DNA of 64,000 bases from an uncultured Planctomycetales bacterium (lineage in GTDB: Bacteria; Omnitrophota; Gorgyraeia; Zapsychrales; Fredricksoniimonadaceae). The stretch is from NCBI GenBank assembly GCA_964583975.1, contig CAZOXU010000003.1, forward strand, positions 92,153 through 156,152. The letters run 5' to 3'. A model generated the notes under the pieces. That model made no database searches and had not been told where the DNA came from. It saw nothing but the letters and a program-made list of their open reading frames with translations. A program made the translations under genes and the position numbers. Of this stretch, positions 1 to 24,000 are shown piece after piece. Positions within the stretch are counted from its first letter, which is position 1, and each line of letters begins with the position of its first letter.

Positions 1-3000
1 ATCTGATCTGTCAGGATCAGCAAGTAGGGCTGCTTCGTGGATCAAGGTAAGTAGTAATTCGACTTTATTGGCAGGTTCTAAGAGTGTTTCATCAATAAAA
101 AGAACATTGTTACGTACAACAGCCCAAAGGTCAGATAAAGGACCTGCGCGAATCTCCATATGGCTCATTTGCTCTAGGGCCTTTTTGAGAGATTCTTCAT
201 TCTTAAGGAAATCGTTCTGTGCTTCTTTAATGACCTTAATCACCCAGGCCTTGTATTCAGCTCGGTACTCTTTAGAAAGCTTTTTGACCTTTGGATCGTT
301 AATTTGTTTAGTAATCACTTCTTCCTTGGCTGTGGCGTCGGCAGGCAGCGCGTTGTTCTTCTTAGCACGATGCTGGTCAAGGGGTAAATTGATGCCTGGC
401 ACTAGTTTCCTTACTAATTTTGTGAATCCTAAGAAAAATACAAAATTTCTCCGATCAAACGAATACCATTTCTCTGAAAAATGAACAGCTCTCGCATGGA
501 TCGCGATAAATGGCCAAATAGCATACGTCAATCTATGCCTTAACGGAGCCATATAGTTCCCATTTAAAAGATCTATAACAAAATCAGAGGTTTTTTCTTT
601 TAATAATTCTTGAACATTTAGACGAATGCGGCTTTGAATATCTTTGTACAAAGAATCTTCTAATGGAATATAGATTTGGATAAATCTATTAAGGCCACCA
701 TCATCTTCTTCAATGTTTATCGTTTCAAACATCAGGTGGTCAACAATAAACCCTTCTGTAGGATGTGCCGAAATTCGAGCGATAATTGACATCTGGTATC
801 CTTTAACATGCATATGCACCCATAATTTACCATTTACGCCAAACGCAAAATGATCTTGAATTTTCTCATTAACTTCCATAAAAACTTCGCCGCCAAATCC
901 ATAGACACTATGACTATTCTGCTTAAGCATTTTTGCAATATAATCCCGGGTCCCTTTAATCCTTGGTTTTAAAACAAAATACTGAATAATATTTAGCGCC
1001 ACAAACACTACTGCAGTCGTCCATACGATCCACAATGGCAATAAACAGTCAGGATTGTTGGTATTAGCTGATGGCATTGTTGTAGTAGCTTCCTGTCCAT
1101 TAACCATCCCTGTCAAGACGCCCATAGCAACCGCACCAACAATTCCTTGACGAATCAGAGGACTTATTTTATGATCAGCCTGTTTCAATAAGCTTCTTAC
1201 CCCCGAAGAATTCACTATAGATTCCCTAATATATTCCCCAACGACTCGCAAACCATTTTTGACTTTAGTAAAGGAGTGTGTTATGTTGAACACGAGTTCA
1301 GTAAGTTTTTGGAATGATGGACGACGTAAATATGTAGCATCAATGTTCGCCAACTTTTCACTAGCTTTTATAGGGGCAACATTAACAACTGAAGTATTCA
1401 AATTGGGACTGTTAACCCAAATAACATTGTTGACCTGTTCGTTTTGGTTTTTCGTTTTAGGAATTTTTGTCCATCCGAAGAAAGGAGCATAGCATGACTT
1501 TATTTCTTTTAACTGGCTTAACAATTCTGTTAACGGTGAGCCTGTGGTTTGGGATTGATCAATACCTTCATCGTAACGACCGTAAACAATCCTAGAAATT
1601 AGGGACAGGGTACTATTTAGGGAGTTGTCCCTAATTTTCACCAACCAAACCATAATTCCACTGGCAACCAAAATTGCAGCCCACACAGGCTGCGCCAATC
1701 CCATCAACCCAACTATTGCAACCGATGCAGTTGTCAGCACCATGGCACTGCCTTGCTCTGCCCCACTCGAACTTTGGGCCCTAGGCATATTAACATTTAA
1801 TTCTTGCTTATTTAATACCGCATACCAACGGATCACTACAGACGGCTCTGAGGAAATATTTCTTAAAACATATCGACCCAGAGTGATTGGAAGGATTCTT
1901 ACTTCACCTGCTTTAACAATATCCAATAGCTCACCATTAGGAGAACGAATTTCAACGGAACCTTTTAACACATAGATGGGATACCCTCGTTCAAACAAAC
2001 GTTGTTCGATGCTCGTTGCCACAGTGAGCTTTTCAACAATGGTTGGTTCAACTCTAAATAAACTTTCAACTCGATTTCCATCCTTGTCTGATGGCGATAT
2101 TGTCTGCGCTTGCACCACAAATGAAGCTGGATCAATTTTCCCATAGGCGTGTTGATATCCTGCTTTATGCGCATGACGTAAGATTAATAAGCTAGCTAAA
2201 AAGTCTTCTTTTCCTCGTCGTGGAGCATTACCATCCATCGAATCATCAATGCTCACACTGGCACGCTTAAGATCACCTTTTTGAGAATCTAATAGTGAAG
2301 GGGCTTGAGACCATTCCCAAATGGTTGATCCACCTCGAATGGCATGAACCAGACCGCCACGAACCACCACCAATTGGCCCTGATGCAATTTGATTGGATT
2401 AACCATTCTTTGCATGGATCTTCGCATTCGAGCCACCAGTAACATTAACCAATTAACGTTTCTATTCCATCCGATATACATCGGGGCTTCTTCTCCAGCA
2501 ACAAGCCACAACTCTGGCTTAGCTGGCCGAGTTGGATGATTTCCTTTAGGATGCAATTGTAACGATAAAGACCTTCTAGCATCAATTAACTTCATGACAA
2601 CACCCATATAATTTCCATATCGTCTTACATGGGCAGCACCTAAAATAGAATACGCCTGCTCCTTTAAAAGCTCGGATAGGGGCATTTCCTGACCATCTGG
2701 CAAAACGACCTTAGATGGATATTTTTGATCGTCAGAAGCAATCCATAACTCCGCAATTTGCTCACCCAAACGAAACCCTAACTCGGCTGAACTTACATTG
2801 AGCGTTCTTAAAATCTCAGAATTCGCAACTGATTTCCCCCACGGGTAACCATCTGAACCTGTTCGAATATTTCGGTTCAAAACCTTAATCGGCCTCTGTG
2901 TGACATCCAAAATATCGACCCGAGTAGAAATCTTGTCAAACCAGTTGAGCCTGCTACCCCTTTGATCATTAACGGTTTTACTCCAAACCTTATTTTCCGT

Positions 3001-6000
3001 TATTGCTACGTATAAACCATTGCTAACATAATCTTTAAACGTAATTTGTTCAAATTTTCTCGATATCTGCTCGCCATAGACATCCCGGGCCGCATACAAT
3101 TTTTGCCATTTTTCTTTGTGTTCATTGGAATTTAAATTATGTTCACCTTGGTTATAGCCAAACTTTGCAGGAACTGAATCGTATACATGATCTATGATAC
3201 TTAACTGCATTCTCCCAGCATCAATGCGTCCTTTAACAGTTACGTATTTCTTAACCACATCGGCACTCACGATTGCAATTTTGGTAATTTGATTTCTATG
3301 CGCATAGTCTTCTATGGCGAGCATTAACATTTCTTGCCAAGCTGCAAACTTATTCCTTAGGTGTGTAGGTAATAATCCATACACATTAGATTGAATATTG
3401 GTCACCAAAATCATTTCTTCAAAACGGTAGAACCGAACAAAAGCAAACTCAGTGTCCTCGTTAATATGCCCAAATACTTCATAATTAACAGCCCATAATT
3501 TATCTAGTGCTTCCTTTTGAATATCGAATTTATTAACTTCCGCCACGTCTTGGGGAGTTAAATGTAGGGTCATATAATAAGGCGTGTCGTATCCTCTTTG
3601 AGGTATAAACCCATCATTTTCAATCACCGCATCTAACAGAGTGTCTCGAAACACTCTTATTTTTGAAGAAAATGGTTTTAGATGAGCGCTGTTACCATTG
3701 ACCTTAAATTCCCGACGTAATTGCTCAAGAGCTTCCGCTCGCCTTAAAGAACGAACTAATTCTTGAATTTCATAATGGGTAATTACTAAATTATTATTGG
3801 TACCAAAAATTTGTCTTAACGCTTTCTTAACTTCGCCATTGAACCCTAAACGAACTGTCTCATCTATTAATTCTTCTAATTTAACGCTTTGCCCTTGGGC
3901 TTTAGAAGACAAAACCTGAGTTAATACAGTGGCTACCTGGGTCGCATTTGCTCTTTCTTCCACCAAAATATTGTTTTCATATCTCAATGCTTTGCCGCCT
4001 AAACGTTGCTTTAATAGGTCATAAAATTCTTTATCAATCTCAATACCTGATTTTTCAATGCCTTGGGATTTTATGGCAAAATTAACCACAGCTTCAATGG
4101 GTAAGTAGGATTCACGAGTCGTATCAACAAGAGCTCCAAAACGATTAATCATTTGAAGATGGATATACTGCTCATCAATATTTGCATTCATGCGAGCCAC
4201 TAAATATTCTTCAAAAATAACTCTCATCAAGGCCATTAATGGCGCGTTACTTAAAGAGAAAATATCCACTTCTTTTAACAATTTCAAAATATGCGAATGG
4301 ATCAAAATCGTTTTATTATTGATATCTACCGCTAAGATGGCCTTGTTAAGTCTTGTATCATTGGCTGTAATTAATATGATCCAATCACTATCGAAAGGTT
4401 TGTTTAAACGCGGAGTTAATAGCGATAACAATCTGTTTAAAACTTGTTGTGAAATGCTTTGCCCCTCTTGATCCACAAGGTTTGCTGATTTAAAAAGCTC
4501 CCCTAAGGTCATTTGGATTGCAATCTGATCAAATGAATTATTTGCACGGGCAGATTCAGAAACGTTAAATGGTGCCTGATAAACTCGAGCAGCACTATCG
4601 TCGGATTCTACTTTTAACATTTTGTTTACTCTAAACGTATGTTTGCCTAAATGAATGGCCATAAAAAATTTACGGATGCCTCTCGATAACCAATTTGGAT
4701 TATTTTCATGGCTCCTAGCATATTTTCGCATCCACACTAAAACCCCTGCTACTAGTCCTACGGTTACAATTACGATTATTAATGCAACGAACAACGCAGA
4801 AACATTAGGTGTATAATTTCTTTGTCTGCTGGCTAATTCCTGCCCGTTAGCCCCACGAGTTAAAACGCCCATCGCAAGCACGGTAAGAACAATTCGATAG
4901 AAAATAGTGACAGGCACTAATTTCATTGTGGATAAACTGTGGGTAAATAAATGGTGCGTGTCAGCATTTTCTTTATTCACGACAATCTTGCCCCAACGAT
5001 TGATTCCCCAATTAAATGCATAATCAACATCCAAATAATTTGCGGTCACAACCCCTTCATACTCTGGTCTATTAGGAACAATATTTAAAAACTGTGTTGA
5101 TGGAGCGATTGAAACGACTAATCGATAATCTGCTTGTTGAGACTTTCTTTTGTAAACATCAGCGATAATTTGCTCTATATCTTGGCGGGTATTAAGCAGT
5201 TCTTCAGCATTGTGGATAATTCTTAAACGATTTCTGGCAGGAATCAGTCCTTGGATGGGGAAGAATCCCTTTTCTTTATTGTTTCTCGTATTATGTTCTG
5301 CCCAAACAGCTATGACTTTAAATCTAGAGTTTTTCAATTTGATCCAGAATAAAAGCCCATTATTGTCAATAGGATCTTCCCCACTATATTGCATACGACC
5401 TAAATGTAAATGCACCCATAAAGAACCATCGGGGGCCCAGAAGAAATGCTTAAGGATCTTTTGATTTTCCCACTCTTCAGTGATCACCGAGGTTCCTGCC
5501 TCTTTTAATTCTTTAGCTAGAGAATATGCTGGGGATTGCTCTTTGGAGATTTCTGATCTTCGACGATTACTGACCATTTGTGGCATCGATACATATAAGA
5601 ACATAATACCAAAAACAAATAACACCATCTTCTTAAGAAACTCATCTGCTTTGACTTTAGATTCTTGTGTTTGGGGAACTTGCGCCTTTAAATCTTCTTG
5701 GGCCTTTTGAATCTGCTTTTGTAGCTCATCTTGACGATCTTTCAATGTTTGAATGATCTGATTAATCTCTTCTTTGGTTCGTTTGATCTTTTCATCAATG
5801 GCTTTAAGTGCTTCTTGTGAAAGTTTAGCCTGAATCGCAAGTTCCTTATCCTTGGTTAATTTCTCTATTATTAAATGTAACTCATCTAATTTCTTCTTAG
5901 CTTGCTTGATTGCATCCGATTGAATCTCAATAGGATCTTGTTGAACTGGTTGTTCAGTCTTTACAGGTTCAACTGGTGCCACGACTGTTGGTGCTTCTTG

Positions 6001-9000
6001 TTTTGTCTCTACTGGCTTAGGTGCTTCAACCTTATCAGCCGAAGGCTGACCAGCCTCTGGCTGGGGTTCTGGCACGCTCACAACAGGTCTTGGTCTTGGA
6101 GATGGTCGATAGCTAAAGAACTCTGGTAACGGGTTTTGGACCTGGGTTGCTGTACTAAAGGTAATTAACGCGCCCCAATCGCTTCGATCTCTTAGATCAA
6201 AGCTATTAGGCATTTCTATATAAGGCTCGAATGTCAGATTCTTTATTACTGGCACATCACTTAAAAATGGCACTGCTCCTAATCGCATAGCCACTCCATA
6301 TCTGGAGCCCGTGTAATACTGATAAATCTTATCGCTGAATGTTTGTGGCTCTAATGGATTGCGTTCCAAATAAGGATCCATAAATCCAAGTACATTCTTA
6401 AAGGTCAGCTTGCCATACCAATCCTCTGCTCCTGTATCATTGACAAAGTAATGATAGTTGGCCGTTAAGTTAGTTGAAATTGGTGTGACATTAAACCAAA
6501 TCTCTGGAATATAAGCATTTCGATTCTCATCAAAATTACGGATAGCTGTTAAAGCTGCCCCATAATTGTCTTCATTGTGTTCCAATCTTAAATATCCAAC
6601 ATTGTTGTAATCTAATGAATATCGTCCACCCAGGCTAAAGTCTATGCTTGGCAGTCCCCATATATTCAATCGATCACCAAAAGATAAATATGTTCCATTA
6701 ACTCCTTGATTAAAACGTCCTGTCGAATAATCCAATACGGCATCTGTTTCCCATGCAGCGCTATACCAGCGTGTACCCTCATGCTCTTGCAGACGTAATG
6801 TCTGTAACCCGTAATGAATGCCTGCTCGTGATTCTTGGTTGATCAATGTCAACGTAACGTCCCATGGTTTAGTTTCTTCTAGGGGTGTTTCAGTTGTTAC
6901 AACTGGATTATCTGATTGTTGTTCTTGGGGTTTTTCTGAAATACTGTCTGATCTTCGACTTTCTGACTCAAGCACTTTTCTAATGTCATCCATTTCTTTT
7001 TGAGCCTCTTCAATCTGAAGATTTAATTGCAGAATCTTTAAATTGGCTTTTAGTCTTAATGCGGCCTCTTCTATCAACCCGCGAGCCTTGGCGACACCTA
7101 GCTTAATTTCTTGAGCTTGTAACAGGACGAAAGCTCTAAATTGTTCTTGTCGCTTTTTATTTTCTTGTTCTTCGGCAATTCGCTGGACCTCTTGCATGTA
7201 TTGCTCGTAATCAAAGAGGTGTTGGAGAAACCTGTCTCGATCTTGATTATAAATCATTATTTCAATCTCCCGAGCCAGACGCGCATATTGCGCTTCCTGA
7301 GCTAGACGTGCTGCCTCGGCTGCTTCTTTGGCAGCTTTTGCAGCTTGACGTTGTAGTTCTTCTTGAGCTTTTTGCTCAGCTGTTGGTTGAGGCTGTGGCG
7401 CTTTAGTATTACCTCCATTATTTAACACATAGATCAGTGTCATCAAAATGGTGATTGGTAAGAGGGCAAAAGCAATTTTCCTCCAAAGCGAAGAAATTGG
7501 GGACAGCGCCCTATTTTTCTCACTTGTCGTTCCCGAATGTTTCTGTCGGGAACCTAGAACCTGAGTGCCTGGATCTCCGATAACAACATTCGGAGATGAC
7601 ATTGTTACAAAAGCCTGCTGTATTTCTGCAAGGTACTCCGGCAAAGCTACAATTTGATGATCTTTCGCAAATCGACCTGAGAAAAAGCTTAAATGATCCT
7701 CGAGTGTGCCTCGCTTCTTCAGAGCGGCAATATGCTTTTGGCGGATGCGCGCTTCATAAACATCTTCTTTTTCCTTAGATTCCTGAGGATTTAAAATGTG
7801 TAAGATTTCATGCTCTAAAATTTCAGCAAATACCAGATCATCTAAGCTAAACATCAATGGGGATAAGAAAATATAATGCTTGGATATATAAGTTTGTTGA
7901 GCTGCCAATACTTTCATTTGGGGTCTTAAAATAAAGAAAATCTCTAAATCTTTCATTGATGAGTGCTCAGCCATTAAATATTTCAGTGCTTTGAGAATTT
8001 TCTTTTCTTCAACCTGAGTCAAAGCTCGTTGAGGATCATTGGATCCAGAAACGCTTGCTGGAAATTCATGAATAGTTGACACTCCGCGTCGTAAGCTTCG
8101 CATATTCTTACGTAGGTAATTAAAACCAACGATGAGCAAAGCTCCCAAAATAATCCAATTAGGCTCAATAAGACGAAGTGCGTTTGATATGCTTGCTGCT
8201 GGCTCTTGCGCGACATCAGGGGTGGATAAATATAACCTGCCTTTATTTTCAGGAAGTTTAAAGAATTCCTGTAATAAATCTAAGCTTAAGCTTATGCCTT
8301 GAGGTTGAGCTGCGTTCGGATAACCTTGCTTGGCTAACCCAACAGTCATAGCTAAGGTCAAAACAATGGTCACAAATACTTTTAAGCGTAAATCTTTTCT
8401 TACAGGCTCAGAAGCTGTGTACCTTTTGACTAATCCAGCAACCATCTCATTGATAAATAACAACGCTCCCGTGATTGTAAACAACAAGCCCCAAGCCACA
8501 TATTGACCTTTTTCATACGAATAGGCATAGTCAGCGGCAAAATATAAAAAGGCATAGGCCAAGATAAAACTCAAGGAACCTACAGCAATTATAAATTCAA
8601 GGACAGGTTTAATACGATCGGTAAGATCTGGCGATGGTGACTCTTGAATACGAGCCCTATCTTTCTGTCCGAAGGCAACTAAGGACAAGATTGTTCGTGT
8701 TACGTCAGCAGATGTTGATGTTTCAGAGGTTGTATGTTCTTTCTTGTCATCGCCTTTAAGAAGAACAGGAATCATAATCACATGAAAAAGTATGACCCCC
8801 CATATCAAAAGCATCATTTGCCACATTCTGTCCTTTTCTCTAATAAAGGACAATCGATCTGGATCGGCATTTAAAGCAATATCTTTAAGGACAATTCTTC
8901 CATTCTCATTAACAGGACCTTGTGGCATTGGAGCTAAAGCTTTAATTAAACCTGCTCCGCGAGCCAAGGTTTTTAATTGACCGTCATGGACATCGCTAGC

Positions 9001-12000
9001 TGTTGGGAAGACCTTGGCAAAACCGCCAATTTTACCAAAGTAGTTTCGAACCTCTTGATCGTTAAGCACCTTGGTTAAAGAAACTTTATTCTTAGCATTT
9101 AAATGACGATCCGCTGCTTCGATATGGGCCTTAGCTAAAATAAAGCGTGCTAATTCATCTTCGAGCGTGGCAGGGCCATAGGGGAAATTTAATGAAGCTG
9201 CAATGAGAGCCACCTGCTCAGCGCTCAAATAGCCCATGTGATAGTAAGCTGCTTTAAATTTATGTTGCACATTATCTAAAGCATCTTGGATAAACCGTCC
9301 TACAATTATTTTAGATGTGTGATTGCCTTCAAGTAAATCTACAATGTCGCCATGCAGATGTGCCTGCTCAATTGCTTCCTTAACATTAACCTTTCGCATT
9401 TGGTAAGGACCCAGAGACTCCGTGAGACCAAATGTATCAGCTACTAATTTCTTATTGGCGCGCCAGCCTTGCGGACGACCCGTTTCCATATAGGCCGTGT
9501 TGTAGATGATGGCATCTCGTAAATTGGTAGCTGTTGGCGCCAAATTCTGTGCGCTATGCCCCAATTGAGTTAAGGCTACAGTGAACGTCACCGACATCGT
9601 GCCTATCAATAAAGTTCTTAAGATCCAGCCCTTTTTAAAGTAGGCCGGCAATGATCGAGTCGTAATTAAAGAACTGATTGTTTGAAAGACTAAAATCAAT
9701 CCTGCCATTGAAATTAAGATCAAGGTGCCAAAAAATCCAAAGGCTACGATTTTGGCAACAACAGGAGAATAAACAAATCCCCCGGCTTTATAGAGGAAGG
9801 TATAGGCAATCAAAAAGCCAAGCGCTGCAGCTGCGTAAATAGGCATTACGGGAATTTGGGAGGAAATTGGGGACAGCGCCCTATTTCCCTTGTCAGATTC
9901 TTCGCTTCGCTCAGAATGACTACTTAATAATAGGGCGCTGTCCCTAATTTCCAATTTTACAGCGAATTCGGGTAAAGGCAGGATGCCACGAGATTGATTT
10001 TGAAGCAACCAGGCTTTAAATTCTTGAAGGGTATTATTTTGTTCTAAACGGTGAATATCACGGGTTTGTATAGTTTCTTCATCCAGTCCTACAATATGAC
10101 CAATTTCATGCGACATTACTGCGCGACGTATAACAGGTGGCGCACGCAGGGTTTCTGGATGTAAATAAACAACCCAAACGGTTGCTTGCCCCTTACCTGC
10201 AAATTGATGCACCGCCGCTAAACGCGACAATCGAGGTTCAACTACAAAACGAATCTGATACTGACCTAATTGATCATATCGACTATATTGTTTTAACTCT
10301 GTCAAAATATTGGTAAGTTCATCACCTTCTAACAATCGCTGTGGACCTTCTTGGGCCAGAACTTGGACTGGGAAAAATTCAAAATCAGCCTCAGGGGACA
10401 TCTCCCGTCTTTTCTTCTCATACGCCTCGAGCCTTCCTAGACGGAAATTGTTGGCACTCAAGGTTTCGCCTTCTACTTTTACGTTCTTATGATGTTCATA
10501 TAAAGCATCTTGTAAGAGCCGCCAGAACAATGGTTCAGGTCTAGCCCCTTTTTCGTCCTTCATTCTACTTAACCATCCCGATAAATTATCCAGCTTACCC
10601 CATCGCTTTAATCTCTCAATATCGCGTGGCCAGATCGCTTCTTCGCTAAGTCCTAGAATATGATCGATCTCATGGTATAGAACAGCCTCCAAGATATACA
10701 AATAACCCTCAGGCGTGCGAGATTTCTCTAATGTTTCAAATATTATGGGATGTAAAAATATTTGCCAAGTCTCTTTCGCTTCGGATGTTCTACGTTCAAC
10801 AAATCCTAATGTGCCAAGTTTAGGCTGTATGGCTAGCAACATTTTTATACGTTGTAAATCTTCTTTGCGATGATGTTTTAAAAGAATAGCTATGACTCGT
10901 TCACGTTCTTGCTGTGTTGGAGCCCTTAAAGTCCCCTCCTGATGCGCAACATTTACAGGAAAAGCGTGTAATATTTGTCGTTTAATTCGCTTAAACTCTC
11001 CTTCGCCATAGTACCCTGTAGAGGCTCTAATAGGAATTCGAGGCATGGCCGTATAAATCTCAACAATATGTTCGTACATATAAGAGAAGAAATCACGGAC
11101 AGGATACGGAGCCGTATTATATCCTCGCGAACTAAGCAATGATTCAATGTCTTGGGTGGGAGATTCCAAGGCAAGATTAACCTGACGATGTCGTATCTTC
11201 AACATAGCAATCAACAAATCATTGACCACACGAATATTAATTCTCTTCTTTAAGATAGCTTTTTTATCTGAACCCGGTCTGAAAAACTCTCTAGTCAATT
11301 CAAGGTCTTTTAAGAAATCTCCTACCCGTTGCCGTTCTTCCAAGATTCTTTCGTAATCTCGTTTTTCAATAAACTCTTCAATGGTTTGATCAAACAGTAA
11401 ATAAAGGTTTTGAATATGGAAAAGCTCTTCTTGCAAACCATCTAGAAATTCTTGTTCAAGCAAAGGATCTTTAAAAGCAATGGCCATGGCCCCAGTATTA
11501 GCAAAAAATTGACGTCGTTCTTCACGGTCAAAGTCATAACGACCCAGACTTCCGCTTCTGCGGCTTTCATTAAAGATACGGTGCCTGTAATCTTCATTGG
11601 CAGATGGTTCAGTCATCGACAAAATCTCTCGATCTTCATTAAAATCAATGTGTACAATTCCTAAATTATCTTCAAGAACTTCTCTCAAAGATCTTTCTAA
11701 GAGTGAAATAGTAATACCATTGCGCAAGGATATATCTCCTAAACGAATGGCATCAGCATTAAGTACAATGCGACCACCTGTTTTTAAGGATTGTTCTAAG
11801 AGGCCAATGATCTTGTTGCTTTGAAGGGGGAATCGTTTAATAATATTTTGCATTAAACCATCATCGCTTAACAAGGCTTCCATGTGAACTATTTGATATT
11901 CATCTTCTTTCTCGTCGCCAGGGATGGCGCTCCAGTATGGGCCTAAATTTTCTACAAGAAAATCAAAAATAGCATCACCTGAATCTGCAAAATAGGCCTT

Positions 12001-15000
12001 CATTAGATTTCTCGTTACAACACCTCTGAGGCGTCCTAAATTCTCTAGTTGGCTATACATATAAGCCAGATTAACATCTAAAACAGTGGCCTCAGCCCTG
12101 GAAACCCTGCCATCATTAATGGTGTTTTCAATAATATCAGCAACAACTGTAGCCTTCAGTTCAAATAAACTTGGTCTTGCTGGTTGCAAAAGAACATCCG
12201 CATCTCCACCTGCTAAAAGAATCCCCGCACGAATTTTATGCACTGGTATGGCTTTATGATTTTGGTCCAAACGTTCAGGGAACATAACCTCGACAGTGAC
12301 GTTGGGTAACCCTTCACTTTGGGCTTTTAAAACATCCTCCCATACATCCGTCAGAGTGCGGACTGGCTCAGATTGTGCTGTGGCTTTTAATAAAGGTAAT
12401 AATCGTTTATAGGCTTCCGTGCCTCCTAATTTCTCGATGACTCTTTGTTGCATGGCATAGGTTTGACGGATATAGGCCAAGAATTCTTTAAAATCTTCAT
12501 TAGAAAGATACTCAAATGCCTGCTTAAACTCATTGGTATTGACAATTTCTAACGGATTACTCTTCCACACATAAACTTCCGGCTCAACAGCTAGTAAATG
12601 ATTTTGATCTAAGAAATATTCTTTTAAACTATTCCAAACACTTCTACTATTATTGGGAAACACCATTCTTAATTCTCGTTGAGATATCAAACCGCTGCTC
12701 AAATTATTAACCATATTAATTTGATCACCATCGTTCACCACGGCCTTTGCCCAACCATTGGATACCATCGCTTCTTTAAATGTTTCCCAATTTATTCCAA
12801 GAGCTGTAATCTGCGTCTTTGTGATTTGGCCGTATTTGAAAGGCTTAAACAATACCTGAGCCTGACTAAAACCAACCTTGCTCCCTGAAACGGCAACATT
12901 TAAAACAATAACTGGTGAAGCAAAAAGTTTCTCTCGTCGAGATACCCATTGTGTTATGCGTTCTTTGTTTTCAGGATTGGTAATCACAATCACCAAATGG
13001 CTACTACCTTTGCCAGCAGCTGTGGACAATCTTTGAATGGCCCCCACCATGCTTTCAGTTCTTTTCTGATGCAACTGATTTAAGGCATCTTCAAGACTGA
13101 TGGAATTAAATTGTAAAAGGTATTTCTTGGCTTTAGCTATAGCGCGAGCTAGGTCTGTTGGAGCAAAGGCAATAATTCTAACAATGGTGAATGTTATTAA
13201 AACGCCTGAAATCATCTTGAATATAGTTGAACCAAATAAAAATATACCAAAAACACCCGACCAGAACATAATGGCAGTAAAGGAACGATTGACAATTTCA
13301 TTGAAATTCCAACTTCTTTCCCAACCTGTTTTCACGTCTCGCTCTTCAATACCGGATAACAAAGGATAAGGATCTTCTTGGGCAGTTCCACGGCCGATGT
13401 CTTTAAATTCACTGCTAACTTTATTAATAATAAGCTGTGGATCAGGATAGCTTCCTACAGATATAGTTTGGGCAAAGGCCATCAATTGAGACAATTCTTG
13501 CATGAATGCCTGTTCTGCCTCACGCGTATTGCTATGAAGACCGTGCAGTGGATTTCGACGAGTAATAAATTCAATAAATGGGAAAAGAACAAACATAAGT
13601 CTTACCAAAACGCCTTCACTGATTTCATAATTTTGATTACCATCTCTTAAAAACATATACCCTTTGAAACGAATTCCTTTAGAAAGTTTATCCACGAAGC
13701 GGGTGTATGGCAGCACATAACCTAAGGTAAACTTGCCAATGATTTGACGCATTGTCTTTAATTGTTCCACTGTTGATCGTTGGTGGTTATGAGGGTTCTT
13801 CAGATCTTCTTCAATAGAAATCAGGATCCACTGGAAGACTTTAAGCATTCTGGCAAATAACCTTCCAATGATAACTCTTTGCTGGAATAATTTTTTGACG
13901 TTATGGACACGGACTTCGCTAAACTGAATGATTTTTCCGATTTCAGTTAAGATCAATCTCAAATCGTCTCTTTCCCATCTTTGATTGCCTTTTAATTTGG
14001 CAGGATCTTTGACATTAACCACTTTTCTGGCATAAATGCTATGTAATGTAGCGAAAATAGCATACAAATCTTGATGCGAAATCTCTACGCTATCTCGAGA
14101 GCCGTTTTTGCCATTAACATTAATTCTTTCTTTACGCTCTCTTTGTTGTCGTTTAAAAAGATACATTCTAATACCCTGCAAAACAGCTCCCACGACCAAC
14201 AATAATGCCCACCAGAACTTCCTGAACATATCGTAAAGATGCATCATGATTTCAGTTGTTATGGAAACTTCCTTAACTCTAGTTCTTAAATCGACCCCGC
14301 TTGTGGCCAATTGGCGGTCATAATCATTTAAAAATGGCTCGTAGCGTCTGACCCCTTCAACGGCGCCATCCCATACACCTTGCGTGCGGATTCTTATTAC
14401 GGCATGCTCTATAATGCGCTCACGCAAATCTTGGCGAATTTGAGAATTTTGACCTTTGACATATTCCATCAGGCCTTGCTCAACAGCTGCTATCAATAGG
14501 TTTTTCTCCTGGTAGTCCCACCAAGATAAATCTTGCGCATCATACAAATTCAAGATTTCATTTAACAAACCATTGGCATCAATTTTGATGGCATTTCGGA
14601 TGAGCAAATAGCCAATTCTCATATTCCCTGTTTGTTTCCATGAATTATCTTTCAATATGGTGCTCATCAAAGCACGAGCTCGATTATCTAGATTGCCCAT
14701 ACTTAAGGCCAAGGTGCTTATGACAATAGGGTCTTCTTTATTACGTTCATACAAGGTTTTGATGGCTAATAAATGCGCATCAATGGTGCCTGAATCATTG
14801 GCTGGTACAACCCCTAATAAGGCCATGGCTAAAGCCAAATCTGTCTGTGCATCGCTATGATTATTGAGGGCAATGTTTCTCGTTATAAAGGGTTCTACGT
14901 CACCGTATCCTAACCAAGATTGAATTAACCCTGCGGCTGTGATTCGTACATTATTAGTTGCTGTCAATGCTTCTTTAACAGCCTGGCGCAATTGCTTTAA

Positions 15001-18000
15001 TTGAACATCATTTAACACAGTCTTTGATACCCAGCTTTGTAATGCTTCTTTAAGCGGATCGTTATCAGCTAAACCTTCCAATGTCTGGATGATCAATCGA
15101 TTGATCCGTGCAGGAATTTGGGCATTTACTAAATTGGTAAATTCCTGGACATCTGATTCCCATATACCATAACCATTGATCTTCTGGCTCAAGAGGCCAT
15201 CAGGCGTTTGACCCAACAACTCATTTGATTCACTTTTCTTATAAGCGTTCTCGGCTCTTAACACCTCTGCGACAACGGCAGAATCTTTTAAAATTCTATT
15301 TAAAGCAGGTGAATTGACTTTGGCCATTAGTCCTACTAATTTCTGAGTGCGTCGGTCTAAATTATTCATGGCCTCAAAACCACCCTTAGCAATGCCATTT
15401 TCAACCATTTGCATGAGCACATCAGTTTGTTCAAACGACCAATCTGGATGAGCAATAGCTAAATTAATCAATAAATCCACATAGCCTCTTTCGACATCGC
15501 GTAGCGCCAATGGCTTAAAGTCAGATCCTACGCTTAGGATCATTTGAATATCTTGTGTAGTCAGACGATTGGCAGCACGTCCATTCTTAATTTCATCTTG
15601 AACATCTTTAAACACCAATCGTAGGGGTTCTTGATCGGCTGTAACTGGTAGACGGTTTAAATGATTATCAATCAATTGATTTAAAGTCACGCGGACTGCT
15701 GGAACGGCTTGAATATAATTGCTTAACCAAGTACGTCGCTCTTCATAACGTTGCATGGCTTCAATGGAATCTGGAGCGCGAAGCATACCAAAGAATAAGC
15801 TGACCAAACGATTCACGACACGAATATCAGCGCCTGCTTCGGGCTTAAGCGTCTTTAATACATCGAGGTCTTTAAAGAACACCTCGCTGTTGTCTTCGCT
15901 AGCAACCAATCCTATGGCCAATTCGTTGCTGGCTTCATCAGCAGCTGCTAATTTGGCAATGACCTTAAGCTTAAGATCAGGACTTCCTGAGCTGTACATA
16001 CCTGCAATCAATTCTCGGCGACTGTCGTACAAGCTAGCAGCCAGAGCTGATGTGTCGCTGATTTCAACGCGGGCTAACAATTCAACTACAGCTTGTTTCT
16101 TGAGGTCTGATAAATTGTTAGTGTTGATTGCATTCTTTAATGATGCCCATTGAGCGGCATCGACGCTTAAGAATTTATTGCCTAAGCTGTCCACGCTGAC
16201 TTGCAATTGTTGACCTTGCATATCATTGCCAGAAAGAATCACTGTGATGAAGTTTTCAACACCTGAGGCTGGAGTTAAATTAACGCCGATCTGCGCTGCA
16301 GTTTGTCTTAAAATAGCTTTGGCTGTCTCATTGCTTAAGCGCAGTTGTTGTTCAAAACTTGCCTGAAGGGCTGCGACGAGTGTCTCATCAGCGCTTTGAC
16401 GCATGGCGGATAAAGCTGATTCGTAAGCTTTAATGGCTTCTCTTTCAGCTTCCGTGGTGCTCGATAATTTCTGCAACAAACGCGCTAAATCCATAACGAT
16501 TGGCTCAACTAAATCTATGGCAGCTTGTGAAGAGACCCTCACATGTCGGGCTACTTCTGTCTTGGCTAAAATGTTGTCCCCAGCAAATACGCTTCGCAAA
16601 CTAGCCAAAGCCTTGGCTGGCTGATAAGCCATAATCCATTCAATAGCTTGTTTAGCGATCTGGGTATCACGATCATTCACACGTAAGAGTACGGATTTGA
16701 ATAATTCATCATCATTACCTAACCGACCGGGCTTGCTACGAGTAGCATTCAAAACCTCAACAATTACTTCGTTGCTTGTCGCATCACGCAATACCTTAGC
16801 TAAAACTTCACGCTGACGTAAGTTATTGCCTGCACCTAATTTTGCAATAGCTTGGGATTGTTCTTTGCCAGCGCTTCTTAAAGCCTTTAGCGCATCGCTG
16901 CTAATTTTAGCCCACATGGCATCGATCGTGGCTTGTCCTTGATCGGGTGCGTCAGCTAAAACGATTCTCAATAATGGCTCATAGACCAGATACATGACCT
17001 CAACTACATTTTCACCGGTAGTAGCCAACAATCGAGGTCCAACGCGATCGGTAACATAGCTCGCAAATTTATTCTTAAATTCAGCATTTTGACCTTGGAT
17101 ACGGACACCAATGCTTTGCACAAGTTTATCCAATTGGTCGGCTACCAAAGCTTGACCTTCCACCTTGGCGCTAGCATGAACCTTGGCTAATCGATCAAGA
17201 CCATCAAAGATCAAATTCCACAAGGTATTATTGCTCTTTTGTAAGACAAGGAATATCAGATCTGTGTCTTCAACTTTAAGTTCTTCGATTCTCTCGATTA
17301 CTTCTGCAGCCACAGAAGCCACTGGATAAGCCATAGCAGCTCTTAAGGCCATATATCTGACATCGCGATGTCGATCGACAATCATGCCAAAGAGTACATT
17401 CTTGCTGTTATTAAACTGGGTAGTGCTGATTGAATCTGCAGCTAATTGGGCATACATGCCTTCTAAAGCATAGAGCTTAGCGACCCTGGCTTGATCAAAT
17501 GGTTCACGTTCAGCTTCACGGTATTTACCTAAAGACTTCTCTAATTCATCGATCAAATCTTCAGCATACGAAGAATCAATCTTCTTAGCCTTGGCATAAT
17601 CATGTAAGATGATGGCTCCTAAAACCCTTAACTCCCCTTCGGTATTCCCGCTTAAGCGCACATGATGATAAATACGATCTACAAATGCAGTGATCACATT
17701 ACCCACACGTCCTATGATGGATACAGCTGGATTTGAATAATCTGGATTGGTGACTTTAACTTCAATTAAATTGTCAAAAATCAAACTCCACCACCATGGC
17801 TTTTCAACGCCAGGATTGTAATAGGCAATGATATTCTCGCTGATATATCCTGGGATGCGTTCATCGCCAGCCGCAGCCAAGGTGATTAAAGATTTCATTC
17901 TGACATCAGATGGGGTTTCTTTGTTATTGAGAGCCTTCCATAATTGTCGTACTTCTTCTTCACTTAAACGAACCTTGCCTACTAAATTATCCCCGTCTAA

Positions 18001-21000
18001 TTGGTTGTACCATAATGGCACCTCTGAAGTATTAACACCCACTTTTACAGGCTCTTGTGTTGGGTTTTGATGTACAGGAGTTACAGGTCCTTGTGGCAAT
18101 GGTGTCACTGTGGGTGTTGGACCAGTTACAACCGTAGGCTGAGATGCAACAGGTTGTTGTGGCACTGGCACAACGGTTACAGCAGGAGACTGAGTAACCT
18201 CTGGTTGGGGCTGAGGTGACGGTTGAGGACGAACAATATCCACTGACTTTTGCTCTGGAGCTACAATACGTGTCACAGGAGCAAATGTTGTAGCTTGGTT
18301 GTAATGTTGCCATACCTTCATGCTTAAAATACCAACTATTCCAACGATTATTCCTAACACAACAATAACCATTATTACTCTCAATAATTTCATAATTATA
18401 TTGAAGTTAAAGATCGCAACTTTTTGAGTTGGCGTTACGAGTAACTCGCTGCTATTGTCTTGTGGAAGATCTAATTCAAACGTTGTTTCTGGAACTTGCG
18501 TAGTTACTAGATCATCCTTTGAGCTTGAGGTTTGTTCATCCAAGGCTCTTTCTATTCTGGCCACATAATCTTCAACAAGGGTAATTCCATTCTTATCTAA
18601 GAAATAATCAAAGTGCTCCTCTAACATGCCTCTTTGCTGCATTGCTGTAATATGTAACTGACGAATGCTTTGTTCATAATCCTCATCGTTTTGTTGAGCC
18701 CCCTGAGGATTCAACTTATGCAATAATTCATGTTCCAAGATTTCAGCAAGACGAATGTCTGTCAAAGTCAGAACCAAAGGATGTAAATAATCATAATGCT
18801 CTTCTTCTCCCGTAGCTGCTTGATACGATTGTGTAACGGCTAAAACTGCTAGTTGTGGATCAATAACAAAACCAATCTTCAAAGCATTAAGCTCAGGATA
18901 GTACCCAGCCAACAATCTTAAAACTCGTTGAATCTTTTCTTGTTGTTCTTGATTAAGAAGTTCTTGATCTCCTTCTAATGGTGTTACATTGGCAGGAAAA
19001 CCATTGGCTGCGTTTCGTTGAGCTCTTCTTGCCTTTTGACGTTCTTTGGCTGCAGCAATTAGTTCTGGTGTTGCTGAAGGTCCTTCGTTTGGTTTCTTAC
19101 CTGTGAATGCTCTGACTCCTGGAACTGAGGCTGTTACAGTTGCTGGTTTTACATCTTCTGTTGTGCTAATAAAGACGGCTAATTGTCGAGCTCTTTCTTG
19201 TGTAATATTGACCTTATCTCCTCTAACTTTTGGAGCTGCTGGTTTAGGAGTTTCTAAGCGTGGGAAAAGACTTAACACCTGAGCTGACTGGTTGTTTAAG
19301 GCTGTAATCTCATACTCACCCATATTGGCTGGTATTAATACGCTTGTTCCTTTCTTTAAGATATGGCTTCGGCCATTAGATACTTGTTTGAGTTCAACAG
19401 CACCATTCAATCCCATCAAGAAGTGGAAATAATTGACACTTGGCACAAGCACTCTTTGAGCGCTTACTAAATGGATGTTTTTAATACCTGCGCGTAGTGC
19501 GATATCAGAGCTAGCTAAGGTGCTTCCATCAGCTAATGTTTCAAAAATCTCCCAGCCAGGGGTTCTAGAGAAGTTAATAAAAGCTTCTCCTCTTAATTGA
19601 TTAAAATCAATAGCAGCCAACCCTGCTTCGATGTGCAAAGGTCTGGTAGGATCATTGCGACCATAGTCATAAAGTCTTAAGGTGCAATCTGAAATCGTAC
19701 AAATCTCAATGGCTCTGATGCCTCTTTGAAACGAGTGAACGGTACCAGAAGCAACGCGATAAATGTCACCAGCCTGCACCTTGATAGAGTTCAAATAAAC
19801 TCGTATATCCTTACCTTCTCTGACGGCCTTCTTGAATTCTTCTGCGCTAACACCTTCTTTAAGTCCTAATAAGAATTCATTGTCTTGATCTGCTTCAATG
19901 ATGATATAAGCTTCTTCCTTGCCTGACTCTGATAGGCCTAATTGTTGAGCAATTCGGTCAGAAGGATGAACGTGGATGGATAATGGCTCCTTTGCATCTA
20001 AGAACTTAGCGACAAATGGCGCTTGGATTCCCATAGCAGCCATATCCAACATAGAACCATTGGGTAACAGGATTCTTGAAGGATATTGAGGATGTTGTGA
20101 TAATTCCCAGCTTTCTGAATAAGCTACTCCAGCTTGAGCCTCGATTCCTTTAGCTTGGGAGATCCACTGTCCACCCCAGGTTTGATTTCTGACAACAGGA
20201 ACCAGAGCCACAAAACTGCTAGAAATTAGGGACAGCGCCCTATTAATGTCATCATTGCGAGTGTTTTGTAAAAGTTTCAGGAAGTCTGCCTCTGCGATAA
20301 TTCCTCGAGACCTATTATTGGCGAGCCAGACAATAGCTTCGTTAATTAAATTCCATTCTTTCAGGCGGGAGATATCGTGCAGTTGAACTTCTACTTCTGA
20401 TAATCCAAAAATATGATCGGCTTCGTGGGCTAATACAAGTCTTAATACTTCTGGTGGCCCACGTAAGGTCTCTGGATTTAAGTAAACAATCCATATAATC
20501 TTTCCTTCATGCTCAAATCTTTGTACAACACCAAGTTTGGTAAGCATTGGAGCCACCACAACATAGACGATATGGTTGTCTAATGCAGTGTAACGGGCAT
20601 TGGCTTTTAAACCTTCCACGATCAATTCAAGTTCTTGTGCTGTTGGCGCTCTCTTGGGTCCAGATTGAACTGGAACATTGACTGGGAAAGCTTGGATATC
20701 TGAGGCTCCTGGTTTGGGAGTAACTGAAAAAATATCGTGTTTACCAACTAAATTTATATCGAAGCTTTCTTTGGATTCAATAACAATGGATTGGACAATC
20801 ATTGGACTTGCAATATTGATAGACGTGGATTCTTTATCGAACTCGATTGTAACCTGCTCAGCCTTTACATTAGCTTTATGGCCCTGGGCATCTTTTAATG
20901 CGATGGTGATTCTTTCTTCTTGAAGGGCTTTTAAAATATTGACTTTTACTGACTTTTTATTCCACCAAGAAACTTTTATACCATTCAATTGAATTCTAAC

Positions 21001-24000
21001 AATTCCCTGTTTGCCATCAAAGCTAACATAGCTATCACTTAAACTCTTGGCACGAACACCCGCCTTAATAAACATTAAATTAATAACGAGATTAAATTGA
21101 TCGTCACCACGATTATTTTGTTGAAGAGTGCTAGAAATAGTTTCTTTTAAATTTATCTGTCGACGCATATTTGTTCCTAAACGATTCACGACCGCAGCAA
21201 TTTCTACGACAGCGGCTTTGATCATCACGCCTTCAACAGCTGGTATTAACTCGCCCAACAAATCTGCAACCGCTTTAAATTGTTCCACACTATCAGCTGC
21301 TTTAATATATCCGACGGTGCTATAAACAAACTCAGTGGTTTTGGGGAAACCAGCTTTGGCTGCGCTTGTTTTAATTTGCTCAATAAGCTGAGGATTGGTT
21401 GGTTCAAAAACAACGACAATGCCGCCATTGTTTTCCATTAATTTAAGCTCAACAATCTTCAATTCAATGGTTCCAACGCCGTTTAAAAATCCTGCTTGAA
21501 TAACACTTGAATACGCAGCATCTACATCCTTTTGTGTAACTCCTGCTGGCAAATTCTTACCCACCGCTAAGGATGAATGAATTCTATGCAATGGCATTAA
21601 GGCCAAATTAGCCTCAGGAAGAATTGCTCGTAATCTTTCCTGGATATTCTTAATGATGCCGTGTAGGGATGTTTGTCTGATAGCTAACTCTAAGCTGACA
21701 TTGCTATAAACAACTCCCTGGGCAGGGTTTTGATAAACATAATAATTCTTTTCTAAGCGTTGATTGAGTTCTTCTAAAGCCTGTTTCTGGGCCAAATGCT
21801 CCGCAGTTTTAGCTGCCTTTTCTTGTTCTGCTAACCTTGCTTCTTGCTCTTGAGCTAATCGTAATGCTTCTGCTGCCACACGGGCTGCCTCGGCCTGTGC
21901 TTCAGCTATTTGCTTTGCTTCTTGTTCTTGGGCTAACCGCACTGCCTCTGCCTGGCGGGCTGCTTGTTCTTGGACTAAGCGTAATGCTTCTGCTGCTAAA
22001 CGTGCTTCCTCTGCTTGGCGGGCTGCATTTATTTCCTTTGAAATCTTAGCGTTTATTAAATCAGCCATACGTTGTCGTACAGCTATTAATCTGTCTGCTT
22101 CATACTGTTGTTTACGAACTTCTTCCTCTGCTGCTCGTTCTTCGGCTAGACGCTTTGCTTCTTCTTGAGCAATTTTTGCAGCTTCAATTCTTTCAGAAAT
22201 TCTTGCGGCTAATTCTGCTGCCTCGCGAGCTGCTTGTTCTTCTGCTGCCTTCTGTGCTGCTAATCTTAAAGCTTCAGCCTTTGCTGCTTCTTCTTGAGCA
22301 ATTCGTTGCTCTTCAACTTCACGTGCCAAACGGGCTACTTCTGCCTCTTGTGCTGCTTTTTGCGCTGCTTCTGCTGCCTCGCGAGCTGCTTGCTCAGCTA
22401 GGCGCTTTGCTTCTTGCTCTTGGGCTAATCGCACTGCCTCTGCTGCTGCTTCTGCCTCGCGTGCTGCTTGTTCTTGAGCTAAACGTAATGTTTCTGCTTC
22501 TTGTGCGATTCGTGCTTCTTCTGCTGTTAATCGTTCTTGTTCTGCTTGTGCAATTCTTAATGCTTCAACTCTTGCAGCTTCTTCGCGGGCTGCTTGTTCT
22601 TCAGCAACGCGTCGAGCTTCCTGTTCCCGAGCCAGAGCTGCTGCTTCTTGAACTTTACGTAAATCTTCTTGTTCCTGGGCTAATCGTAATGCTTCTGCTG
22701 CAGCTACTTGTTCTAATCTTGCTGCTTCGACAGTTGAATCAGAAGTAAATCGAGGTAATCGGGCTCCAATTCCTGGTTGAATATCTGTTATCTCTGGAAC
22801 AAAAACAGTTTGGTCAACCCCAGCAGCAGCTCCCTCGTTACCTGTTTGGGGTGGAATCACAGATCCACTAGCTGCTGCAGGGGTTGATCCTGCTGATGGG
22901 GCAGGGTTTAAATTGATGCGTGTGGCTAATGCAATTTCTTGTTCAGAAGGAGGAATAACACGAATACTGTCATCCTGAGGCGAAGCCAAAGGATCTATTT
23001 TAGATTCTTCGCTTTGCTCAGAATGACCATCTGAAATGAGATCACTTAATTTAACACGGGTGGCTATTGAACGTTCTTGAGCAGTAGGATTATCAGTTTT
23101 TTCTTGGACTATAGGGCCAGCACGAATACTTGGAGTACCTTGAACTTGACGTGATTTTAAGAATTTAATGACCAACCAGAATAAAAGACCAACGCTCGTA
23201 AGACCTAAAACAACCAGCATAACTATATAAAGTGTATTAGGACCAACAGCAGGTTTAACATCGTTGCCTGGTAAGCTTGTAGGTGTTGTGGGAACGTTGG
23301 TGGATCCTTTAACGGGTTTAGCTGTCTCATCAGTTTTTTGACCTTTGCTGAAAGCTGCTTTCATTTGGCCAAAGACTTTCTTCACTGTGCCATCTTCCTT
23401 CATCCATCCCCACTGACCTTCTCTGGCATCGCCAGCGGCTTTGCGGCTATTGTCTTGTAAAGACATAAATACAATGCTTACCTTCATCTCTTGTGCGACG
23501 TTCCAATCATTTTGAACCAATTGAGCTTGAACTTCTTCGCTATTAATAGAAGCTTCACCTGCTTCAGCAATATAAAATGGCTTACGGACACCAACCACTT
23601 GAATCGCTTCTTCAACATCAGCCTTCAAAGAAGCATTATGACGATAATAGTTAACGCCAATCGCATCGATGTTGGTCTTTATGGCTTCTGCTAATTCCGT
23701 AACAAATCTGATACGAGTATTGTTTCCTTGGATATCACGTGAGGTGTCGCCTAATACGGTTGTGACAGTTACATCAGCACCCACCTGGGTATGGATAGCA
23801 CGAGCAGCGGCATCGATAACGGTAAATAATTCGCTCATAGGGCGTCCGCTCCAGGCTGGGAAATTGCCATCGAAATTTGGTTCGTTCATAATTTCCACAA
23901 CGAGCTTGGCTCGGTTTTCAAGAGCAGCCTTGATGGTGCGAACATATTCCACATAGTTATTAGCGGCTAATGAAATTCGGGCACCCTCTGTTGGAACAAC

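Follow-up and report, generated by a model that had tools for sequence, protein, structure and literature searches.

A repeated zincin-like domain at module junctions of a giant Omnitrophota-type open reading frame, a candidate polyprotein-processing element

Open reading frames (ORFs) of 10,000 to 147,000 amino acids (aa) are common in Omnitrophota. Their known classes comprise the 'Archaeovorins' and the Dockerin-type giants (West-Roberts et al. 2023, 10.1101/2023.11.21.568195) as well as the 'multi-enzyme metabolic cluster' (Nielsen & Lui 2026, 10.64898/2026.06.07.730766), and enzymes of sugar metabolism are common among their cargo (bioRxiv 10.1101/2023.11.21.568195; 10.64898/2026.06.07.730766). 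It has been proposed that the giant proteins are cleaved; only C39 and S8 domains have been named as candidates, and the cleavage points are unknown (10.1101/2023.11.21.568195). The present work concerns a stretch of 64,000 nucleotides (nt) from contig CAZOXU010000003.1 (positions 92,153 to 156,152; GenBank assembly GCA_964583975.1), hereafter the window, and in particular a zincin-like domain of about 150 aa that recurs at the boundaries of protein modules and is here called the junction domain. A preliminary description of the same DNA had read nt 1595-21830 as a super-module present at least twice, made up of a palindrome-encoded motif, a pair of transmembrane (TM)/HExxH blocks and a cupin resembling phosphomannose isomerase (PMI). 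Giant ORFs of this kind are known already, and the new part appears to be the junction domain: zincin, HExxH motif and junction domain are absent from the main texts of 10.1101/2023.11.21.568195 and 10.64898/2026.06.07.730766 (a survey of 916 long proteins), and a literature search found no paper in which Omnitrophota and HEXXH occur together.

The entire window is a single open frame on the minus strand (nt 1-63999), 21,333 codons long without interruption and still open where the window begins and ends, which makes it a piece of a giant gene. A six-frame count over the 64 kb gave 0 stop codons in this frame vs 890-2106 in the other five, and the Pfam and PDB domain matches lying in frame further back it as coding. 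The preliminary description, which dealt in a discrete translated ORF, had missed this frame. Residues are numbered here from 0, residue i occupying window nt 63999-3i down to 63997-3i, and the protein features and solo repeat arms given below lie on the minus strand. The interval nt 1595-21830 then equates to aa ~14056-20801 and makes up the C-terminal third of the fragment (at least 21,333 aa), which comes from a single membrane-anchored giant ORF with many modules, of the type described from Omnitrophota. With 21,333 stop-free codons the frame exceeds the 10,000 aa by which such ORFs are recognised. By a Kyte-Doolittle hydropathy scan (19-aa window, mean of at least 1.7), which is crude and not a TM predictor, TM-like segments are absent from aa 1-9490 and form 39 peaks beyond aa 9490, in agreement with the numerous TM helices of the giant proteins. 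Pfam matches are sparse across the fragment, being confined to TPR, Phage_lysozyme, a weak GNAT match and two PMI-like regions, and the 21,333 aa contain only four Cys residues.

Five HExxH-bearing blocks in the C-terminal third constitute, as judged from their alignment, one domain family of about 150 aa. In protein order these are A1 (nt 20248-20724, aa 14426-14584; HEADH at aa 14525-14529, its first residue at nt 20427, followed by Glu 14535), B1 (nt 18529-19059, aa 14981-15157; HELLH from aa 15090, nt 18732), A2 (nt 10495-10989, aa 17671-17835; HEIDH from aa 17776, nt 10674), A3 (nt 9949-10413, aa 17863-18017; HEIGH from aa 17964, nt 10110) and B2 (nt 7600-8124, aa 18626-18800; HEILH from aa 18730, nt 7812). 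Self-BLASTP joins an A-type set (aa 14433-14602, 17677-17831 and 17871-18054; 35-43% identity, E 1e-17 to 1e-33) and a B-type pair (aa 14987-15153 and 18630-18797; 38% identity, E 1e-31). The alignment of all five has 13 invariant columns in ~160 aa, with the pattern FP(V/A)xV ... P.L..L ... L.P ... HExxH ... E ... I, and although identity among the copies is as low as 19-43%, all five hold a canonical HExxH and a downstream Glu. The blocks align well beyond the pentapeptide, so that the first refuting condition of the preliminary description does not hold; the peptides it quoted all exist on the minus strand, its end coordinates being the first base of each HExxH, and the two kinds of block that it had kept apart ('TM/HExxH' and 'AEILEHExLH') merge into the same family in the five-copy alignment. 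A hidden Markov model (HMM) built from the five copies found no sixth in the 21,333 aa at an i-Evalue of 1e-3 or better; a weak partial match at aa 12225-12295 (i-Evalue 0.064) has no HExxH. The fragment holds seven HExxH motifs vs ~0.3 expected by chance for 21,333 aa of the same composition, five of them in the homologous domains. The two others, HELVH at nt 50331 (aa 4557) and HETIH at nt 47562 (aa 5480), fall outside the family and could be fortuitous or belong to other zincins.

The junction domain is covered by no Pfam-A or NCBIfam model, and when 1.84 billion cluster representatives were scanned exhaustively with an HMM only 30 proteins reached E 1e-3 or better, so that the earlier surmise of an uncharacterised zincin family has stood. 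The Pfam family Zincin_1 (PF06262) scored 22.0 bits on A3 against a gathering score of 22.4 in a scan of 1,000-aa chunks, the match being limited to 20 residues about HExxH (profile positions 75-94 of 97); when the copies were scanned singly it matched two of the five, at best with E 0.024, and the domain falls outside that family. Word-indexed homologue searches with two zincin alignments returned no relatives, and such a search with a 794-aa module returned PMI-like proteins as its sole matches; only the exhaustive HMM scan recovered the family. Most of the 30 relatives are fragments of 1,000-3,900 aa, and 13 hold two or three copies in a local HMM pass. Source labels were looked up for 13 proteins (ten relatives and three cluster mates): six are from Omnitrophota, two from Njordarchaeales, one from Syntrophorhabdaceae and four are unlabelled, and the six Omnitrophota-labelled ones are 'partial' proteins that fill their contigs. 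The family consensus reads YPATLPTxNQPDRxPTxxE..I..AFG...VISPSL..PAEV..G.LYVNPN.LRGPPEQLKVIFEGHELxHLLG..E.EAR..TI.YL..NNLL.SHI.FL..N.IGL, and the window copies align to this canonical type with an hhalign probability of 99.3% (E 4.6e-20). In the 30-sequence alignment (A2, not to be confused with the domain copy of that name) H, E and H do not vary, and at least 90% of the sequences have the downstream Glu; across 61 distinct instances, 50 have the canonical HExxH, and 49 of these 50 an acidic residue 4-10 aa past the second His. Two divergent subtypes, HELISH (HExxxH) and HHDFxLH, were seen at L034 aa 5877-6004 and at L041 aa 982-1109 and 2438-2556, and divergent copies also stand C-terminally in P0015, P0019, P0022 and P0029; at L038 aa 39-174 a copy of canonical type has lost HExxH entirely.

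In the order of its predicted elements the domain resembles a minimal metallopeptidase. It opens with an N-terminal [YF]P[AV]xx[PV] segment, which a sheet of three strands, the HExxH helix and a further three helices follow; the downstream Glu stands 6-8 residues past the second His, or up to 14 in the two B-type copies. AlphaFold2 models of A1 are confident, the N-terminal segment included (predicted local distance difference test, pLDDT, 90.6 from five sequences; pLDDT 96.8 and predicted template modelling score, pTM, 0.90 from 30), and run from the N-terminal segment through a helix, three strands and the HExxH helix to three helices. In the model from the 30-sequence alignment the strands are at 41-46, 54-61 and 64-71 and a helix at 80-94 carries H89-E90-x-x-H93, which would place the HExxH helix after a small beta-sheet, as in minimal metallopeptidases. 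The 30-sequence family profile matches selecase (M. jannaschii MJ1213, PDB 4QHF-4QHJ) at E 2.5e-6 and 30.6 bits over 73 residues that cover the strands and HELLH. The top Foldseek matches, none of them significant, are to metallopeptidases as well: ZMPSTE24 (M48) and abylysin and, in the viral set, IrrE and SprT-like proteins. The junction domain is probably a distant relative of selecase and the minigluzincins, and appears to be an undescribed, embedded and repeated branch of the minimal zincins. Designer pentatricopeptide PDB entries, matched by the five-copy profile at E 1e-20, were rejected as an artefact because each sums ten insignificant repeat hits.

In the window, A1 is followed by a PMI-like cupin at +10, A3, B1 and B2 by TM segments, and A2 by A3. 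A metagenome scan queried with nine canonical sequences yielded nine related loci, and the frame holding the domain stays open beyond the fetched 10-20 kb in eight of them (all eight long ones); one, L034, carries six copies of the domain in 6,800 aa. Where it can be recognised, the cargo that follows in the relatives is diverse and begins at its own profile start a short way past the domain: Guanylate_kin at +6 past the domain from profile position 2 (L034), Glyco_transf_5 at +14 from position 1 (P0030), PPDK_N at +49 (P0016) and +159 (P0021), both from position 2, GT20 (P0015) and an alpha-amylase (P0011), both at +46 from position 26, and HD at +64 from position 21 (L034). A conserved multi-TM module stands directly past the domain in L034, L035 and L041, and in P0019 a lipobox-type signal (ILPALFIVLISAGFLSGC) comes next, with a GH72-like domain after it. 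This signal of P0019 (Omnitrophota protein MCK9430542.1, from a metagenome-assembled genome, MAG) lies at aa ~700-740, in the middle of a giant-protein fragment, and hints that modules may need a free N-terminus. The placement in relatives and window alike thus marks the domain, as far as position in the sequence can tell, as a junction element of giant multi-module proteins, one placed a short way before the native N-terminus of the following enzyme, or before a TM or signal-like segment.

Two such enzymes in the window are PMI-like. Cupin 1 (nt 19255-20220, aa ~14594-14915) matches by phmmer the mannose-6-phosphate isomerase of B. subtilis, 1QWR (E 3.5e-21, aligned from residue 5 of 1QWR), and that of A. 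fulgidus, 1ZX5 (E 1.8e-20, over ~200 residues); its Pfam PMI_typeI_cat match of 20.9 bits lies under the gathering score of 22, as do the Cupin_2 and MPI_cupin_dom matches (E 4e-4 to 1e-3) to its putative second barrel. Cupin 2 (nt 1825-2853, aa ~20383-20725) reaches 31.2 bits with PF20511 against a gathering score of 22, and the ManA structures 2WFP and 1PMI only weakly (E 1.5e-3). The two share 23% identity (E 2e-8) with their ligand columns in register, and cupin 2 aligns also to the putative second-barrel segment of cupin 1 (E 0.002). The ManA metal ligands, Gln/His-x-His, Glu and His (Q97, H99, E134 and H255 in ManA numbering), have aligned counterparts in H14676, H14678, E14696 and H14755 of cupin 1 and in Q20481, H20483, E20496 and H20552 of cupin 2. 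Both cupins therefore match the type I PMI family (PF20511/PF21621) in sequence and in metal-ligand columns, and are by this token type I PMI-like, as the preliminary description had proposed; with the ligands kept, its second refuting condition does not hold either. Its TM helix after the first palindrome did not survive: the hydrophobic SSFVALVPVV forms the opening strand of the cupin enzyme. In the databases cupin 1 has its closest relative in P0001 (31% identity, E 1e-20), a partial protein of 436 aa from a Clostridia MAG that joins PMI_typeI_cat to a GNAT acetyltransferase domain.

The protein order of the region comprises two blocks. The first runs from A1 through cupin 1 and B1 to a strongly hydrophobic TM-like segment 51 aa past B1 (nt 18322-18378, aa 15208-15226; mean 3.14 over 19 aa), and is followed by ~2,400 aa without a recognised domain. 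The second runs A2, A3, a multi-TM module, B2 and a further TM-like segment (nt 7432-7488, aa 18838-18856, by the hydropathy scan), after which come ~1,500 aa without a recognised domain and then cupin 2 with two overlapping TM-like peaks past it (nt 1648-1749, aa 20751-20784, by the same scan). The membrane module between A3 and B2 (nt 8335-9849) has TM-like clusters at aa 18051-18105 and 18396-18555, separated by a ~290-aa soluble loop (aa 18106-18395) that matches nothing in PDB or Pfam. A lytic transglycosylase motif, suspected in this loop from 'ESLGPYQM', was dropped, as neither PDB nor Pfam supported it.

The palindromes to which the preliminary description had drawn attention are present at the places it quoted, and only that at nt 9862-9952 forms a strong hairpin. 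They derive from a 22-nt motif, AATAGGGCGCTGTCCCTAATTT, with five copies at up to three mismatches (nt 1596, 7494, 9864, 9929 and 20223; 0.01 expected) and a half-site at 1626. The full copy (nt 9862-9952) has 24-bp inverted arms, 96% complementary, around a 43-nt loop; its hairpin (-47.9 kcal/mol, z -6.15) is the sole strong one among the window copies, and in frame it reads EIRDSALL...NRALSPIS immediately past A3. Its loop contains at nt 9891-9928 a nested small stem (GTCATTCTGAGCGAAGCGAAGAATCTGAC), read as SHSERSEES, which may resemble the 'GCGAAGC'-centred palindromes of many uncultured bacteria. The copies at nt 20223-20244 (NRALSLIS; 2 aa past A1 and 1 aa before cupin 1) and nt 7494-7515 (one mismatch, NRALSPIS; 29 aa past B2, directly before a TM-like segment) are solo arms without a hairpin, and a short degenerate copy at nt 1596-1637 (12-bp arms, 18-nt loop, WLVKIRDN...NSTLSLIS) folds weakly. 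Coding-strand copies are all read in one phase, as N-R/S-A/T-L-S-L/P-I-S, and no other phase is available to them, since TAA or TAG interrupts both alternative frames of this orientation; the single reverse copy encodes EIRDSALL. At three of its four loci in the window the repeat is found 0-29 aa past the C-terminus of a junction domain (A1, A3 and B2), for which a post hoc chance estimate is ~5e-6; this proximity suggests either that the linkers are permissive or that repeat and domain are functionally linked.

Outside the window, an exact scan of 185,579 species genomes placed the 22-mer at 33 loci in 20 MAGs, with at most seven loci per MAG, under the labels Omnitrophota, Elusimicrobia, Planctomycetes, Vulcanimicrobiota, Smithella/Syntrophaceae, Firmicutes and Proteobacteria. 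Inverted pairs are frequent, with loops of 0-187 nt, and short open spans, which mark intergenic DNA, hold 39 of the 41 occurrences. The 33 loci have no similarity to the window beyond the motif, and none of the nine related junction-domain loci contains it. A cyanobacterial origin of the window, suspected at first from GC content and the style of the repeats, was dropped once the 22-mer had appeared under Omnitrophota, Elusimicrobia and Planctomycetes labels; an exact 35-mer had no match in the metagenome collection. Several identities were considered for it and set aside: a gene-start or gene-end signal, since its orientation shows no bias to either; a known RNA, since no Rfam family matches it (nor did a literature search find its sequence in any paper); a CRISPR repeat, since the copies occur as inverted pairs or solo arms at spacings of 0-187 nt and form no direct-repeat array; and a protein motif, since the phase is forced by stops and the reverse copy gives a different peptide. 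We conclude that the 'palindrome-encoded motif' of the preliminary description is a dispersed DNA repeat carried in frame, of the type of repetitive extragenic palindromic (REP) sequences or miniature inverted-repeat transposable elements (MITEs): multi-copy, dispersed, mostly intergenic, capable of a hairpin, present in both orientations and read there as different peptides. A second giant-ORF fragment, L031 (nt 2-6593 on the minus strand of its locus, 2,197 aa, open at both ends, from a Planctomycetales-labelled MAG), holds an in-frame inverted pair, EIRDSALF...NRALSLIS, and a third, degenerate copy, NKALSLIP; it has no protein similarity to the window and no junction zincin. In a Vulcanimicrobiota MAG (L008 nt 5745-6227, L017 nt 2599-2721) the 22-mer recurs as direct repeats ~100 nt apart with similar spacers, that is, as a tandem array. 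Identity of the 22-mer across phyla is unusual for a REP-like repeat, and mis-binning or horizontal spread is possible.

These observations can be assembled into a model of the region. The junction zincins would cleave the giant polyprotein between its modules, either in cis or at neighbouring junctions, and cutting would release or unlatch the cargo, such as the PMI-like isomerases, which once freed would interconvert mannose-6-phosphate and fructose-6-phosphate or a related sugar phosphate. The DNA repeats would be tolerated only in the flexible linkers just downstream of the junction domains, and only in stop-free frames. A processing endopeptidase is the most economical role, because the domain combines a fold of a peptidase family, a maintained HExxH with its acidic residue and a fixed place directly before the native-like N-termini of unrelated cargo; we put our confidence that the junction domains are zinc endopeptidases processing the giant polyprotein a little below the even mark. 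A wider form of this proposal, in which giant genes are polyproteins with their own repeated selecase-like processing domain before each cargo module, cut at the conserved junction near [YF]P[AV]xxP or just past the domain, is advanced more guardedly, as a conjecture that may well fail. Several points weigh against a processing role. It is read from sequence, predicted fold and position, and the TM segments that figure in the placement are calls of the crude scan. Selecase is out of reach for a profile made from the five window copies alone, the link running via the family profile, and the assignment of the third zinc ligand is a guess. Foldseek returned no significant PDB neighbour (best TM-score at most 0.41, with selecase outside the top 50), and the model gave no significant superposition on a solved selecase or minigluzincin member. 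Finally, 11 of the 61 instances have no canonical HExxH (seven HELISH, three HHDFxLH and one with the motif lost), so the conserved role may not require catalysis in every copy.

The same 11 instances give some weight to a quite different role, in which the domain is a non-catalytic boundary or adaptor unit (a folding insulator, a docking unit or a membrane-insertion checkpoint), the metal being structural or missing and the protein staying in one piece. Such a role would also fit the TM segments that often stand directly past the domain and the fact that its best-conserved parts include the N-terminal [YF]P[AV]xxP and NPNxLRGPPE, beyond the metal site; cleavage is, after all, a proposal. We nevertheless think it rather unlikely, given the invariant H, E and H and the near-constant Glu of the family alignment, and given that all five window copies are canonical at 19-43% identity, which is the pattern of a maintained active site. 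If the domains are peptidases, they might also be directed outward, degrading host or prey proteins or cell-wall peptides and leaving the giant protein alone. Selecase reportedly cleaves casein, an external substrate, and a Phage_lysozyme domain lies in the same ORF (aa 7077-7202); yet a digestive enzyme would have no reason to recur two to six times per fragment at fixed positions, nor to precede unrelated enzymes of cytoplasmic type (guanylate kinase, PPDK, ROK, starch synthase, PMI), and the cargo is metabolic, not lytic, so that an outward role seems improbable.

The remaining alternatives concern the repeat. Its in-frame palindromes might be functional RNA or DNA signals, serving as RNase III sites, as ribosome or polymerase pauses at module boundaries, or as recombination sites. 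Their closeness to the junction domains at three of four loci, the near-identity or identity of the 22-mer in distant MAGs vs the ~40% identity of the flanking paralogous protein, the 24-bp stem at nt 9862-9952 with its -47.9 kcal/mol and the in-frame pair of L031 all speak for this, but two of the four loci are structureless solo arms, the motif is missing from all nine related loci, its copies elsewhere are intergenic and unbiased in orientation, Rfam offers no match, and the single phase is accounted for by stops in the other two frames; we hold a signalling function to be quite improbable. Less credible again is the duplicated functional super-module of the preliminary description, with palindrome peptide, TM/HExxH pair and PMI cupin working as one machine. 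Paralogy is confined to the zincins (35-43% identity); A-type and B-type copies do follow one another twice in the same order with a TM segment past each B, and copies of the repeat adjoin both arrangements. Yet the second zincin pair (A2/A3...B2) encloses a membrane module, so that a cupin lies inside the first pair only; cupin 2 has no adjoining zincin, the nearest being beyond ~1,500 aa, and the two cupins, in different contexts, share just 23% identity. In relatives, moreover, the same zincin is coupled with many unrelated cargos and the DNA repeat is found in none of the nine loci, while its peptides change with orientation and its copies elsewhere are intergenic. One machine of this composition is accordingly very improbable, and the union of a sugar isomerase with peptidase-like modules, which had seemed unusual, is not odd within a giant multi-enzyme ORF, because giant multi-module ORFs of the Omnitrophota type commonly carry sugar-metabolism enzymes.

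Other features of the frame lie in its TM-free N-terminal half. The Phage_lysozyme domain (PF00959) occupies nt 42394-42771 (E 9.4e-10), and TPR repeats (TPR_19, TPR_16, TPR_2) nt ~55900-56433 (aa ~2523-2700; E 5e-11 to 2e-9). Tandem protein repeats of ~270 aa, about four or five in number, share 27-44% identity (self-BLASTP E down to 5e-60), have no Pfam match and extend over nt ~59800-63280 (aa ~240-1400).

If the processing model holds, a gene of 64 kb or more would resemble an operon whose division into dozens of enzymes and membrane proteins comes after translation, and the junction domain would be the first sequence-level predictor of cleavage points in giant proteins. The domain offers a candidate processing enzyme and a practical means of segmenting giant proteins for structure prediction and annotation, and the zincin-PMI-zincin unit (~730 aa) is a directly testable construct through which whether and where giant proteins are cleaved becomes a testable matter. 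The 22-nt repeat, shared by MAGs of several phyla and carried in frame in giant genes, is an unexplained mobile or regulatory element.

Compared with described systems, the proposed arrangement has functional analogues in viral polyproteins, in the autoprocessing of MARTX toxins by a cysteine protease domain (CPD) and in the releasing peptidases of polymorphic toxins, in that an embedded protease would cut the linkers between modules. The analogy is one of function only: the fold and catalytic type of the junction domain are unrelated to those of the MARTX CPD and of the polymorphic-toxin and viral proteases, and, unlike the single CPD of MARTX, a metallopeptidase-like domain here precedes many modules, its cleavage being as yet a proposal. 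Closer are selecase and the minigluzincins (abylysin, jannalysin), the minimal soluble relatives of M48/M56 catalytic domains, with which the junction domain shares a size of about 110-150 aa and a small beta-sheet followed by the HExxH helix. It differs from selecase, which is free-standing, archaeal and 110 aa long, in being embedded and repeated, in its conserved N-terminal [YF]P[AV]xxP...R.PT..E and C-terminal three-helix extensions, and in a Glu that falls near the His of selecase in HELLHLKYGKYH. The cupins share with the type I PMIs (ManA; 1QWR, 1ZX5, 2WFP, 1PMI) the ligand columns H/Q-x-H, E and H and a putative two-cupin architecture, and cupin 1 is similar in length to short bacterial PMIs, to which it aligns from residue 5 of 1QWR; unlike free-standing type I PMIs both are embedded in a giant ORF, and cupin 1 has His at the ligand column where ManA has Gln. 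The 22-mer resembles REP and MITE repeats as a short imperfect palindrome, multi-copy (seven loci in MAG JASEHM01), usually intergenic and found either singly as solo arms or paired in inverted orientation around loops of varying length; unlike REPs, which are normally species-specific, it occurs exactly in MAGs of seven lineages, and unlike typical REPs or MITEs it stands in frame inside giant ORFs (the window and L031). As for the giant proteins themselves, the fragment differs from the West-Roberts classes in having few recognisable Pfam domains and none of SecA_DEAD, C39, S8 or dockerin at E 0.01 or better in its 21,333 aa, domains that may lie beyond the window. It is like the giant Omnitrophota proteins in an ORF far above 10,000 aa, in having no TM segments over a long N-terminal part and many of them thereafter, and in sugar-metabolism and other enzyme modules strung together, and the kinship extends to the junction domain itself, six of whose 13 looked-up relatives and cluster mates come from Omnitrophota-labelled MAGs.

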